This document shows, one piece after another, positions 23,823 through 41,746 of a stretch of 64,000 nt of DNA. A program made the position numbers and the translations under genes. Position 1 is the first letter of the stretch; the number at the start of each line of letters is the position of its first letter. This stretch comes from Dictyostelium discoideum (taxonomy: Eukaryota): positions 4,704,001 to 4,768,000 of the forward strand of contig CM000152.2 in NCBI GenBank assembly GCA_000004695.1, in the 5' to 3' direction. Below the pieces are notes generated by a model. That model worked only from the letters and a program-made list of their open reading frames with translations, was not told where the DNA came from and did not search any database.

Positions 23823-24653
23823 ATGGGAGACGATGAAAGTGATAATAATAATAATAATAATAATAATAATAATAATAATAATAATAATAATAATAATAAT
23901 AATAATAATAATAATAATAATAATAATAATAATAATAATAATAATAATAATAAAAATGAAATACTATTTTGGAAAGTTTTTAGAAATATATATATATTTA
24001 AATATATATTTTCAAATTTCAAATATTCGGAATATTCGGAATATGATGAATTAGATTCAATTGATAATATCATTAGAGATTATAAAAATGGTATTGAAAT
24101 AATTAAAGATAAAGTAAAATCAAATAGTTCTTTATCTTTTGGTAATACTAAAAGTTTAAAAATTATTTTTGAAAATGTTAAAGAAACTGAAGAAAATCAA
24201 TTATTTTTAACTCAATTTATAAATAATTATTGTTTAAATTCAAATCTAGTTGGAGATATTTTTAATTGTATAATTAAATCATCGAATTTAATGGCATTAA
24301 CATCATTTATTAATATTTATAAATCAAATACAAGATTTAAATATCAAGGTGTTTTAATGAAAATGAATTTATTTATAGAATTTAAATTGGGTGAATTAAT
24401 CAATTTCTTAAAAAAATTTGTTAAAAATCGTCGGTATGATATTAAATTAAAACTAAAAAAAATTGAAGATTATCAATTTTCTGATTTAGAATTAAATGAA
24501 AATTTATTTATGCTTTTAAAACCATTAATAAATTGGGATACCAAAAACGAAAATATTAGAGAATCAAAATATACTATCAATAAAAGAAATGTAGTTTTAA
24601 AATATATCCATATATTTTTAACAATTGGATCCACTCAAGTAAAAAAAAAGTGA
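23823..24653 (+). CDS. Family member A (276 aa). MGDDESDN start type followed by an expanded ~40-residue poly-Asn tract. It lacks the SAP-motif segment and the C-terminal two thirds of the full-length paralogs. Either a truncated paralog or a pseudogene.
   Basis: Shares family blocks [56 protein letters not shown] with members B, C and D. Confidence 0.55.
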   Translation: MGDDESDNNNNNNNNNNNNNNNNNNNNNNNNNNNNNNNNNNNNKNEILFWKVFRNIYIFKYIFSNFKYSEYSEYDELDSIDNIIRDYKNGIEIIKDKVKSNSSLSFGNTKSLKIIFENVKETEENQLFLTQFINNYCLNSNLVGDIFNCIIKSSNLMALTSFINIYKSNTRFKYQGVLMKMNLFIEFKLGELINFLKKFVKNRRYDIKLKLKKIEDYQFSDLELNENLFMLLKPLINWDTKNENIRESKYTINKRNVVLKYIHIFLTIGSTQVKKK

Positions 24654-25487
24654 TGAAAAAATAAATAAATAATAAAATAAAAATAAATTAATTAATAAAA
24701 AATAAAAATTTAATAAATAATAAAAAATAATGATTAGTTAATCAATCTATAGATATTTTCAAAAAAAAGTTTATTTTATTTTATTCCTAATTATTTTTCA
24801 AAATTAAAAGAGTGAAATTTGAAGTGATTGATGTATGGATACTGAGTTTCGAATGCCACTAGAGTTGTTGCAATGAATGATACAATAATCACCCATGCCA
24901 ATAAAGTAATAGTTCCCATCGGAATCTGTTATTCTCTCTTACCATCATTATTCTTATCTAATGAATGGTACTACTAAAACAATATTTTATTTATTATTGA
25001 TTGCGTTAATTTGAAATAATATTCACCTGTGGATTCGACCACTGAATCATATGAAATTACAACAAATTGATATTGAAAACCGTCGATATCTGTTTGAATT
25101 GTTGATGTTTCACCATTACCACTGTGTGTATATTAAAATATACATGTTCCCATGAAACAACTTAATCTCAAACCTTTAACAAGTATAAATTTTTTATATT
25201 ATTTATTTATTTCTTTTATTTTCTTTGTCTATATTAAATAATATCATTTGATTAAATGTAATATTTTTAATAAAAAAAAAAAACTCCCACCATTTTTTTA
25301 TTACAAAATGTTTTTTCGTTTTTTCTCAAATACCCAAGAATTATTTAATTTTTTTTTTTTTTTTTTTATTTATTTTTTTTTTTTATTTATTTTTTTTTTT
25401 TTTTTTTTTTTTTTTTTTTGTAATCATCCAAGATAATATTGAAACTATTTATTTATACAAATCAAAAAAAAAAAAAAAAAAAAAAAA

Positions 25488-38583: not shown

Positions 38584-38881
38584 AAAAAAAAAAAATAAAA
38601 AAAAATAAAAATAAAAAAATAAATAAATTAGTTTTTTTACTATTTTAATAACAAAATATCAAACCTGGCAAAATAAAAATAGAAAAAAAAAAGAAAAAAA
38701 AAAAGATTTTTATTTAAATAAAAAAGAGTATTAAACTAAAATCTGTTTTAATAAGAAAAAATAAAAATATCCAGATTTTTTTTTCTTTTTTTTTTTCAAT
38801 TTTTTTTTTTTTTTCAATTTTTTTTTTTTTTTTTTTTTATTATTTTATACAAACATAACATTTTAAAAATAAAAAAAAAAA

Positions 38882-41746
38882 ATGAAAAAAAGAACTAGAA
38901 ATAATAATCAAGAATTTTATGATGGTAGAATTGAAAATATTAAAAAACCAAAAGAAGACCACATAATTAATAATGATAGTGATACTTTAATAGATGATGA
39001 AAATAATAATATTAAAAATTATGAAAATGAATTTAAATTATTTAAATTAATGAATAAAGAAAAGTTAGTAATTAAAAAATTACAAACGATTGCAAAAGAT
39101 AATGGATTACCATTCAGTGGTAATGAGAATGAATTGTATAATAGAATTGAACAATATTATAATATTAAAATTAATTCAGAAAAAGAAGTTAAGCAACAAC
39201 AAGATAATAATCCATTTAATAAAAGTCAACCAATATTATTAATTAAAAATGAGAATGAAATTGCATTTTGGAAAGTTTTTAGAAATAAATCGTTATTTAA
39301 AATGGTGTTCTCAAATTTCAAATTTTCAAATACATTTAATTATTCAAGATTATATTCAGTTAATAATATATTTAAGAGTTTTAGCAATGGTATTGAAATA
39401 ATTAGAGATAAAGTAAAATCAAATAGTTATTTATCATTTATAGCTATAAATGATAAGGACAATATTCAAAAATTCAATTTTAATGGTTTATCAATTATTT
39501 TTGAAAATATTAAAGATGAAAATGAAGAAAATCAGTTATTCTATAACCAATTTATAACAAACTATTGTAATAGGACAGTTCACTTTTGGAGTTTATTCGA
39601 CCACGTTATTGAATCATCAAATTTATTAGCATTGAAATCGTTGCATGGAAATGGAATGATTAAAGAAAAGGTAAAAGTTGATTTTGAAATTAATAGTTAT
39701 TCAAATTTAAAAATATTAAATTACCTAACAAAGAATTTAAGTAAACTATTTATTATTGAAACTATTCAAGTCAATGATTTTAATATATTTAAAGAATTTA
39801 AATTAGGTGAATTAATTGATTTCACTAGAGCATTACTTGATGATAAAAAATATTACAAATTATTAAAACCATTTAATAATAATAAATCATTTTCAAGAGC
39901 TACAAAAGATATTGATGATGAATTATCTTTATTTTTAGAAAATATTACAAAAAATAAATTAATTTTAAATGAAATTAAAAAATTTAAATTTACAGATAAA
40001 GAATTAAATGAAAATTTATTTAAAGTTTTAAAACCATTAACAAATTGGGATAGACATTTTTCAAAGTTAAATCATAATTATAGTAGTGACATTGATAACA
40101 ATAGTAGTATTAATAATGAAATTGAAAATGAAAAACAAAGATTATCAATAATAAAATTAAAAAATTTAGAATTATTTCAAAAAATAGTAAATAATAATGA
40201 TATTTTAAGTAAAAAATTAAAATTGGTTAGTTATGAAGTACATGAAAGTATTTTTAGTAATATTATGACAATTCAAAATGATCAAATTAAAATTGGAAAA
40301 GAAATGGAAGGTAATTTTATTGAACAGAATCAATTAATTCAAAAAATACAAGAAAAACAATTAAAAAAACAAAAAGAAAAAGAAAATAATACTCTTCAAG
40401 AATGTAAAGATGATGATTTAAATAAAAGAAATACAATTTTCAAATATATTACTATATTTTATGATTTAAATTTAATTAAAAAGAAACCAATTGAATATAG
40501 TTTAGCCTTTTTAAATGAATTTGTAGCTACAAATGAAGAATATTGTTGTTGGGATGATCAATTATTTGAATATGGTATGCCAAAAAATGAAATTTTAGTC
40601 AATGGTGTATTATCATCAAATATTAATAATTCAAAGAAAATTGAAATTGTAATGAATTCTAAATTTTTAATGGAAAATCAATTTAGAAATTTTATTTCAA
40701 CAAATTGTACTCGATCATTAATTAAAAATGTTAAATCCATTGATATGTTAGATTTCCTTTTTAAAAACTTTCAAAATCAAATATTTGCTGAAAATAATAA
40801 TAATTGGCAATATTGTAATAGTGTTGAAATTTTACAACATTATGAAAAATTAATGGAATCATTAGGTAGAAAATTCTCATATTCAGTTAATAACCCAGAA
40901 ATTCAATTCCCATTATTATTAATGGCAATTAATAATCCATTTTTATATGATGATGATGATGATGATATTCAAAAAAAAAAAAGTTTAATACTTAAAAAAA
41001 ATATAAGTTTTAATGATTTTTTATTATTAATAGAATCAAATCGTTTTAAGAAACTTGAAATGCGTAAGTCACTCACAGAATTTAATAATGACTCTATTTT
41101 AATTTCAAGATGGATTTCAGATAATTGTATAACCGGTCTTTCTTCTCTAATTGACCATGGTCGTGGTTTTAATACGTATAGTATTAAAATAGAAATTGAT
41201 GTTCAATTACCAAACTATAAAGGAAATGATGGTGATGGTGGTGATAGTAATGGAAAGGTTAAACTATTATTATACCAAAATCAATTAATTCAAATATTAT
41301 ATAATTCAAATCGTTTAGATGATATTTTTAAAATTAATAGTTTATCTGGTAAAGAGATTATTAATTTTATTAATTTCATTGGACCACATATTTCATTACC
41401 ATTCGTTGAAAAGTTATTACAATATTTAATTGATGTGAATTTAAATTTTGAAATTTATACTTTTTTAAGTGCATTGATTTCAAATGGTAATCTTTTAATA
41501 ATTAAATATTTAAATTTAAATCATAGTCATTTTTTTTCAAAAATTACAAAAGAGACCGAAGGATTTTTAGAACCAAGAGAATTAAAAAATTTACTTTCAT
41601 CTTCTGTTCTTTTTGATCATGTTCAAATAGCTGAAATACTTTTTGTTTATACAAATTTAACAAAAGGTGAATTTGAAAGGTCAACTAAACCTTCATATTC
41701 AATGATAGAATTTCTTTATTCTAATAATTTTAAATTATCTAAATAA
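38882..41746 (+). CDS. Family member D (954 aa), full length. MKKRTRNNNQEF start type, SAP-like motif [32 protein letters not shown].
   Basis: Same conserved blocks as B and C ([119 protein letters not shown]). Confidence 0.7.
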   Translation: MKKRTRNNNQEFYDGRIENIKKPKEDHIINNDSDTLIDDENNNIKNYENEFKLFKLMNKEKLVIKKLQTIAKDNGLPFSGNENELYNRIEQYYNIKINSEKEVKQQQDNNPFNKSQPILLIKNENEIAFWKVFRNKSLFKMVFSNFKFSNTFNYSRLYSVNNIFKSFSNGIEIIRDKVKSNSYLSFIAINDKDNIQKFNFNGLSIIFENIKDENEENQLFYNQFITNYCNRTVHFWSLFDHVIESSNLLALKSLHGNGMIKEKVKVDFEINSYSNLKILNYLTKNLSKLFIIETIQVNDFNIFKEFKLGELIDFTRALLDDKKYYKLLKPFNNNKSFSRATKDIDDELSLFLENITKNKLILNEIKKFKFTDKELNENLFKVLKPLTNWDRHFSKLNHNYSSDIDNNSSINNEIENEKQRLSIIKLKNLELFQKIVNNNDILSKKLKLVSYEVHESIFSNIMTIQNDQIKIGKEMEGNFIEQNQLIQKIQEKQLKKQKEKENNTLQECKDDDLNKRNTIFKYITIFYDLNLIKKKPIEYSLAFLNEFVATNEEYCCWDDQLFEYGMPKNEILVNGVLSSNINNSKKIEIVMNSKFLMENQFRNFISTNCTRSLIKNVKSIDMLDFLFKNFQNQIFAENNNNWQYCNSVEILQHYEKLMESLGRKFSYSVNNPEIQFPLLLMAINNPFLYDDDDDDIQKKKSLILKKNISFNDFLLLIESNRFKKLEMRKSLTEFNNDSILISRWISDNCITGLSSLIDHGRGFNTYSIKIEIDVQLPNYKGNDGDGGDSNGKVKLLLYQNQLIQILYNSNRLDDIFKINSLSGKEIINFINFIGPHISLPFVEKLLQYLIDVNLNFEIYTFLSALISNGNLLIIKYLNLNHSHFFSKITKETEGFLEPRELKNLLSSSVLFDHVQIAEILFVYTNLTKGEFERSTKPSYSMIEFLYSNNFKLSK

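Follow-up and report, generated by a model that had tools for sequence, protein, structure and literature searches.

We analyzed a 64,000-nucleotide stretch of Dictyostelium discoideum DNA (the window; contig CM000152.2, positions 4,704,001–4,768,000 of the forward strand), which has ~20% GC and open reading frames (ORFs) rich in poly-asparagine. At 23.8–41.7 kb the window carries an 18-kb tandem cluster of genes whose products are predicted to combine an N-terminal SAP domain, a family-specific helical core, and a C-terminal pair of ankyrin (ANK) repeats. Searching the window by tblastn with the products of members B, C, and D recovered each of the copies named in an earlier reading of the letters alone (the sequence-only reading), all on the plus strand, with E-values between copies (1e-25 to 1e-102) far past chance. 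B, C, and D are 49–53% identical to one another, and all the collinear blocks listed in the sequence-only reading are visible in their alignment.

The cluster comprises 3 full-length intact genes, 1 truncated ORF, and 2 pseudogenes; the earlier count of 4 intact and 3 decayed copies was too high. In map order these are (i) member A (23823–24653), a truncated 276-aa ORF delimited from the ORF list and by tblastn; (ii) member B (25488–27902), an intact 804-aa ORF; (iii) member E (about 28144–28770), a pseudogene read by three-frame translation and tblastn; (iv) member C (29270–32920), an intact ORF of 1216 aa (not 1217 aa, as first given) placed, like B, from the ORF list and alignment; (v) pseudogene X, which has an upstream 19-aa piece representing the tail of the SAP domain (34771–34827, tblastn) and a main piece (37753–38572, tblastn and three-frame reading); and (vi) member D (38882–41746), an intact 954-aa ORF. 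D is 100% identical to a D. discoideum AX4 protein (UniProt Q54TP0/XP_640551.1), which is already annotated by domain name as "SAP DNA-binding domain-containing protein"; this identity marks the window as nuclear DNA of that species. C is called as a gene in a newer assembly. In the protein collection, D is represented by its exact ORF translation, but A, B, and C are not. C carries low-complexity inserts ((EK/ESEK)n, DDYDNYD, and T/A-rich tracts).

Two start types are present, as had been proposed: A and B begin with MGDDESDN(N)n, and C, D, and E begin with M(N/K)KRTR. When aligned with MAFFT, the 5′ leaders of A (23596–23822) and B (25283–25487), both on the plus strand, are identical at 89% of 287 columns, with a single 24-bp indel, in agreement with the ~90% over ~230 bp given in the sequence-only reading. 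No other leaders of the 5 copies form a long collinear match. The leaders of C, D, and E are indeed unrelated, with only poly-T/poly-A in common among themselves and with those of A and B. Over aligned codons, the coding bodies of A and B share about 74% DNA identity and 56% protein identity (43% in the local tblastn match). That the leaders are so much closer (89%) than the bodies (about 74%) suggests that the A/B 5′ module was recently copied or converted. Just 5′ of the A leader lies a tandem repeat (23345–23589; 4.2 copies of a 58–59-bp unit, 87% matches). The A–B spacer at 24780–25150 has raised GC and short ORFs on both strands, for example a 42-aa hydrophobic ORF on the minus strand (24791–24919), and looks like the remnant of a small spliced gene. 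DUF5898 was considered as the source of this spacer (24650–25260) and rejected, as no similarity to it or to the fetched loci was found.

Domain architecture of the family

SAP is a helix-loop-helix DNA-binding module, and binding to AT-rich DNA is established for SAP proteins generally. In C, the SAP domain (residues 54–85; 29429–29524, plus strand) passes the Pfam curated cut-off for PF02037 (32.3 bits versus 23.9; E = 7e-8). In D, the domain (residues 61–93; 39062–39160, plus strand) scores below the Pfam cut-off and was placed with the family profile and the AlphaFold2 (AF2) model, in which helices 64–73 and 82–108 form a helix-loop-helix with a predicted local distance difference test score (pLDDT) of 82–90 and a loop that is non-canonical. 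The loop reads SGRK in C, the sole canonical copy, SGNE in D, and DENE in B. A SAP profile built from 12 family members matches solved SAP domains, namely those of rice SIZ1 (2rno; 1e-6) and ERI1 (8e-5) and, more weakly, Hcc-1 (0.008), DEK (0.01), MKL1 (0.075), and Tho1 (0.2), with SIZ1 also appearing again among the weaker matches. Because of the Pfam match in C and these profile matches to solved domains, the assignment is sound, and the N-terminus that the sequence-only reading had called SAP-like can be named a SAP domain. Since SAP is detectable (E < 0.01) in only 6 of the 35 family members, it is the conserved core that defines the family. The basic KKRTR/NKRTR start of C, D, and E is probably a monopartite nuclear localization signal.

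Compared with SAP nuclear proteins (SAF-A/B, PIAS/Siz1, Ku70, DEK, Tho1, and ERI1; PF02037), the family shows (i) a similar helix-loop-helix of ~35 residues near the N-terminus, for which the common pattern is L-x(3)-L-x(3)-GL-x(3)-G-x-K-x(2)-L-x-x-R; (ii) a SAP domain joined to a larger candidate protein-interaction region, as in the PIAS and SAF proteins; (iii) a remainder of about 800 aa that, by contrast, is unrelated to any of them; and (iv) loop Gly/Lys positions that are degenerate in B and D, with most members outside the cluster having no detectable SAP.

The SAP domain and the ANK pair are separated by a core of ~600 aa for which no Pfam model was found in any of the 35 members. It includes a conserved region of ~200 aa, which we designate the N-block (in D, residues 124–335, FWKVFRNK...ENQLFY...SNLLALKS; 39251–39886, plus strand); it is conserved in the 35 members and stands out in the substitution analysis given below. 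Searched by itself, the N-block gave no Pfam match even at E ≤ 10, and neither the whole-protein profile nor the N-block profile matched any PDB sequence. The AF2 model computed from 35 sequences (pLDDT 76; predicted template modeling score 0.71) is all-helical with a few short strands and gave no significant fold match among solved structures. It includes a long helical hairpin, a predicted coiled-coil insert at residues 409–530 of D (40106–40471, plus strand), which is present in C and D and missing from the middle of B. An F-box was considered for the FWKVFRNK motif, since Dictyostelium repeat proteins have N-termini that resemble it, and rejected, as none was found in Pfam (E ≤ 10) or PDB with the N-block profile and 20 members.

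The proteins appear to end in a divergent ANK pair within the last ~70 residues. In D, the pair spans about residues 856–925 (41447–41656, plus strand), contains the sequences ...NGNLLIIKYLNLNHS... and ...FDHVQIAEILFVY..., and was placed with the family profile, a C-terminal sub-profile, and hhalign. Six giant repeat proteins, all of them ankyrin-repeat proteins according to Pfam, match the family profile at positions 655–754 (E 1e-15 to 1e-5). The C-terminal sub-profile (17 members) retrieved from PDB almost exclusively DARPins and other designed or natural ANK proteins, including ANK-N5C, with alignments covering two consecutive repeats and E-values (1e-10 to 1e-3) that are mostly sums over weak repeats. 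In an hhalign comparison with one ANK protein, "...NGNLLIIKYLNLNHS..." and "...DHVQIAEILFVY" of the family pair with "EEGNLEIVKYLLENH" and "KGHLEIVELLL" (probability 40%). Pfam Ank_2 is reached (E < 0.01) by 1 of the 35 members, and structure comparison did not recognize an ankyrin fold stacking into a solenoid. The description "weakly ankyrin-like" thus holds, with the profile matches to giant ankyrin proteins and to DARPin and ANK structures behind it. Like the ankyrin scaffold proteins (Pfam clan Ank), the family would have two repeats with G-x-L-x-(I/V)-(I/V/L)-K-x-L and (N/H)-x-(E/Q)-I-(A/V)-E-x-L helices, and the region upstream of the pair is all-helical and solenoid-like in the AF2 model. 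Unlike them, it lacks the TPLH motif, has a terminal pair rather than a long array, and shows no ankyrin signal in the N-block and middle blocks.

Decayed copies and turnover of the array

Member A starts with MGDDESDN and (N)35, passes directly into the N-block and then part of the middle region, and reaches a stop after "KYIHIFLTIGSTQVKKK"; the SAP domain and the entire C-terminal half are missing, so that A is truncated, as had been claimed. Its match within the ORF (23952–24635) corresponds to B residues 140–411 at 43% identity (tblastn), and tblastn found no family homology 3′ of the stop codon. The loss of the SAP region lies between two AAT tracts, which suggests a repeat-mediated deletion.

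E and X had been called pseudogenes, and in both the coding sequence is spread over three frames with deletions. E retains the MNKRTRD start, the SAP domain, and the N-block, interrupted by stops, and the rest is deleted. At 90.8% DNA identity, E matches the 5′ part of an intact 1097-aa gene of the relative ACTFIW (6218–6647 of the fetched locus L002). An insertion of ~66–70 bp (28608–28678) is placed precisely between the codons for FSNG and EIIRDKVK, and E ends about 100 bp past it. This insertion is GC-rich in surroundings of only ~17% GC and can form a strong hairpin, CTAGCTACTCCCCTC-GAA-GAGGGGATGGTTAG (fold energy −28 kcal/mol, z = −2.75); the homology of E to its ACTFIW counterpart ends at 28611. 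An origin from a transfer RNA or a known noncoding RNA was considered and rejected, as ARAGORN and Rfam returned nothing over the whole window.

In its main piece, X retains, spread over three frames, the N-block, some of the middle region, and the extreme C-terminus; about 600 internal codons have been lost by deletion. The two pieces of X noted earlier were both found, but they are parts of one split gene and not separate copies: the upstream piece matches B residues 96–114 at 89% identity (tblastn) and ends "...YYNIKIKLE", and reading resumes at 37753. B, C, and D have these piece ends contiguous, which makes X a single gene into which ~2.9 kb has been inserted. The splitting segment (34828–37752) contains an intact-looking ependymin-like gene on the minus strand (35504–36253; PF25544, E = 1e-59) and an N-terminal fragment of a pirin gene (37312–37644). 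A Pirin_C fragment is called upstream in an AX4-like assembly, and the pirin fragments at both places suggest a scrambled pirin gene.

The syntenic locus was compared in two relatives, ACTFIW (GCA_054859355.1) and D. cf. discoideum (GCA_054859205.1). In ACTFIW, the order is the 3′ end of a B-orthologue, a 1141-aa model, a DUF5898 gene on the other strand, the intact 1097-aa gene, C, and D, followed by the same GBP and Pol-epsilon-B genes that flank the array in the window; that is to say, the counterpart of the pseudogene E is intact there. The 1141-aa model (L002 948–4680) has many in-frame stops when read straight and needs introns to avoid them; these introns probably hide an E-related pseudogene (85% DNA identity to 28094–28611). 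C and D are adjacent in ACTFIW, and the alignment skips from window position 33153 to 38539, so that 5.4 kb (33154–38538), including X and gene fragments, is absent from ACTFIW. This absence is a structural polymorphism or a species difference. The missing interval holds minus-strand ORFs at 33231–34121, the pirin pieces, the ependymin-like gene, and X. In D. cf. discoideum, the interval between C and D holds a minus-strand gene and a longer three-frame remnant of X (L003 6783–8411). The ~2.5-kb ependymin/pirin segment of AX4 is unaligned there, and the corresponding region measures about 0.9 kb against about 3.3 kb.

C and D are thus one-to-one in all 3 genomes, C having orthologues in both ACTFIW and D. 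cf. discoideum, and the B-, E-, and X-like copies are in flux. With copy number and integrity differing between two close relatives at a syntenic locus, and with intact, truncated, and pseudogene copies (3 + 1 + 2) side by side on one strand within 18 kb, the birth-and-death mode named in the sequence-only reading is borne out. Elsewhere in the family, the loci L006 (D. purpureum) and L007 (ACTFIW) were each found to be singletons within ±10 kb.

Distribution and selection

A profile of six members was run by hmmsearch, a profile hidden Markov model search, against 1.84 billion cluster representatives, and this exhaustive search returned 58 proteins at E ≤ 1e-3, 18 of them at E ≤ 1e-30. The non-family matches are the six ankyrin giants, which align at the C-terminal end only. 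All 37 family matches whose source was looked up or reported come from the genus Dictyostelium, namely D. discoideum (several assemblies), D. cf. discoideum, D. citrinum, D. dimigraforme, and D. purpureum. A further search, for which low-complexity sequence had been removed from a 15-member profile, likewise found Dictyostelium proteins only. Word-index homology searches gave only 7 and 14 matches and were swamped by low-complexity words; the taxonomic conclusion is therefore based on the exhaustive search. At least 22 distinct representatives come from D. purpureum. The family has thus been called lineage-specific with good reason, in that a widely distributed known family was looked for with the profile and not found; the refinement is that the lineage is the genus, not the species, and that the family is larger in D. 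purpureum. It has expanded independently in the D. discoideum and D. purpureum lineages, and it has persisted since their split with its blocks conserved across 35 members. The D. purpureum genome paper describes other lineage-specific expansions (polyketide synthases and discoidin/Cup lectin domains) and does not mention SAP/ankyrin families (PMC3188802). The present family resembles those dictyostelid tandem families in its independent expansions, tandem layout, and fast turnover, and differs from them in that a biochemical activity is known for those and none for the SAP-ankyrin family.

The ratio of nonsynonymous to synonymous substitution rates (dN/dS) was computed by the Nei–Gojobori method (NG86) between AX4 and each of the two relatives, with bootstrap 95% confidence intervals (CIs) and with dS of 0.05–0.13 for all genes. 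For the whole gene, dN/dS is 0.58 and 0.44 in D (CI 0.40–0.86 and 0.31–0.60) and 0.48 and 0.43 in C (upper limits 0.71 and 0.66), compared with 0.16–0.20 for the flanking GBP gene and 0.09–0.16 for the long exon of the flanking Pol-epsilon-B gene. C and D are under purifying selection and evolve 3–5 times faster than their neighbors. Within D, the N-block is the most constrained part (0.23–0.24), the ANK end is also constrained (0.16–0.53), and residues 601–790 (40682–41251) have no detectable constraint in either comparison (1.0–1.2). The flanks of this segment stand at 0.2–0.5, and with three genomes, relaxed constraint within it is inseparable from diversification. The 3′ third of B, compared with its ACTFIW orthologue, gives 0.96 (CI 0.57–1.89), and A gives 0.87–1.04 against its paralogs B, C, and D; A and the sampled third of B are indistinguishable from neutral. 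The gene at 47182–49968, which encodes 928 aa with DEP and SLAC1-type anion-channel domains, has a dN/dS of 0.38–0.61 between strains, so that the SAP family is not the sole fast gene nearby.

The neutral values of A and of the 3′ part of B raise the question of whether the array is mostly non-functional, that is, a decaying orphan family whose long ORFs are kept by chance or by very weak selection. The truncation or pseudogenization of 3 of the 6 AX4 copies, the paralog-wide dN/dS of 0.7–0.8, and the presence of only D among the exact translations in the protein collection are all in keeping with this account. It is nevertheless unlikely, because C and D remain uninterrupted at 1216 and 954 codons though stops arise easily in an AT-rich genome, each has intact one-to-one orthologues in two other genomes, their dN/dS is significantly below 1 with an N-block at 0.23, and the family has been kept, with its blocks, since D. 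discoideum and D. purpureum split.

The same fast evolution could instead mark a conflict-driven family, one that would defend the cell from mobile elements or nuclear parasites or take part in self/non-self or cheater interaction, with copy-number turnover and fast protein change reflecting an arms race. Rates three to five times those of flanking housekeeping genes, the segment of D at 1.0–1.2 in both comparisons, copies that vary in number and integrity between very close relatives, and independent expansions in two species (D. purpureum alone having 22 representatives or more) would all be expected of such a family. Relaxed constraint, however, predicts a dN/dS near 1 over 190 codons equally well; both comparisons contain the AX4 sequence and are therefore not independent, and three genomes are too few for a site-level test of positive selection. 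The constrained N-block and ANK end resemble an ordinary structural protein, and no effector- or enzyme-like domain was found, the PADLOC defense library not having been scanned. We regard conflict as quite unlikely to be the driving force.

Putative nuclear adaptor function

We propose that the cluster belongs to a Dictyostelium-only tandem family that evolves by birth and death and encodes nuclear DNA-tethered adaptors, and we consider this statement as a whole moderately probable. Its descriptive part (the family, its domains, its restriction, and its birth and death) is nearly certain; the adaptor mechanism alone is tentative, somewhat short of an even chance, as nuclear localization, DNA binding, and an adaptor role are all read from domain composition. 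In the proposed model, the order would be a basic KKRTR/NKRTR motif, the SAP domain, the helical N-block of ~200 aa, a variable middle with the coiled-coil hairpin plus low-complexity inserts, another conserved block, and the terminal ankyrin pair. The SAP domain would tether the protein to AT-rich DNA or chromatin in the nucleus, and the helical core and ankyrin end would bind protein partners. New copies would arise by tandem duplication and unequal exchange, the promoter-plus-start module of A and B having perhaps been copied or homogenized recently, and copies would decay by frameshift, by deletion (in some cases probably between AAT repeat tracts), and by foreign segments inserting into them.

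Several observations weigh against this proposal: (i) D falls below the Pfam cut-offs (SAP 17.4 bits, E = 0.0035; SAP_new25, E = 5.8e-5), and B has no Pfam SAP match; (ii) B has lost both the Gly and the Lys of the loop and D its Lys, and these degenerate loops together with the missed Pfam scores imply that DNA binding may hold for some members only; (iii) no SAP is detectable in 29 of the 35 members at E < 0.01, which suggests that SAP is neither the defining nor necessarily an essential module; (iv) the dN/dS values, rough as NG86 estimates are at about 20% GC, are high for a housekeeping role and reach 1.0–1.2 over residues 601–790 of D; and (v) literature searches by product name, domain combination, and accessions returned nothing on the family.

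That the SAP domain acts on RNA or, as it does in some SAP proteins, as a protein-interaction module, with the family serving in RNA processing or export instead of at chromatin, is very unlikely: several of the matched solved SAP domains do come from RNA-related proteins (the ERI1 exoribonuclease, Tho1, Hcc-1/SARNP, and SF3B2), but the best match is the SAP domain of SIZ1, which is of the chromatin-associated PIAS type, DEK and MKL1 are also linked to DNA or chromatin, no other RNA-binding domain was found by Pfam in the 35 members, and SAP sequence similarity does not discriminate between ligands. Highly improbable, finally, is the conjecture that the ~600-aa core is a new fold family confined to group-4 dictyostelids whose turnover and segment with dN/dS ≥ 1 come not from relaxed constraint but from a genus-specific nuclear conflict system, for example, one recognizing transposon or parasite factors on AT-rich chromatin.

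Genus-restricted families that join common domains to an unrecognized core are frequent in dictyostelid genomes, and the gene gain and loss at this locus, though clearly shown, is mechanistically unsurprising; the cluster neither opens nor settles a long-standing question. If the nuclear DNA-tethered adaptor model is true, the family would give a model organism a layer of chromatin-associated proteins peculiar to its genus, and the AX4 array would offer a natural series for the gain and loss of nuclear proteins, with a canonical SAP domain in C, degenerate ones in D and B, none in A, and dead copies in E and X. For annotation, a family without a Pfam model is now defined, with C and D flagged as likely functional, and structural variation among Dictyostelium isolates is documented at the cluster locus.

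DUF5898 is a second family in flux at the locus: DUF5898 paralogs and fragments lie downstream of the cluster in the window (50228–53527), and the ACTFIW DUF5898 gene lies inside the array (L002 4834–5577).

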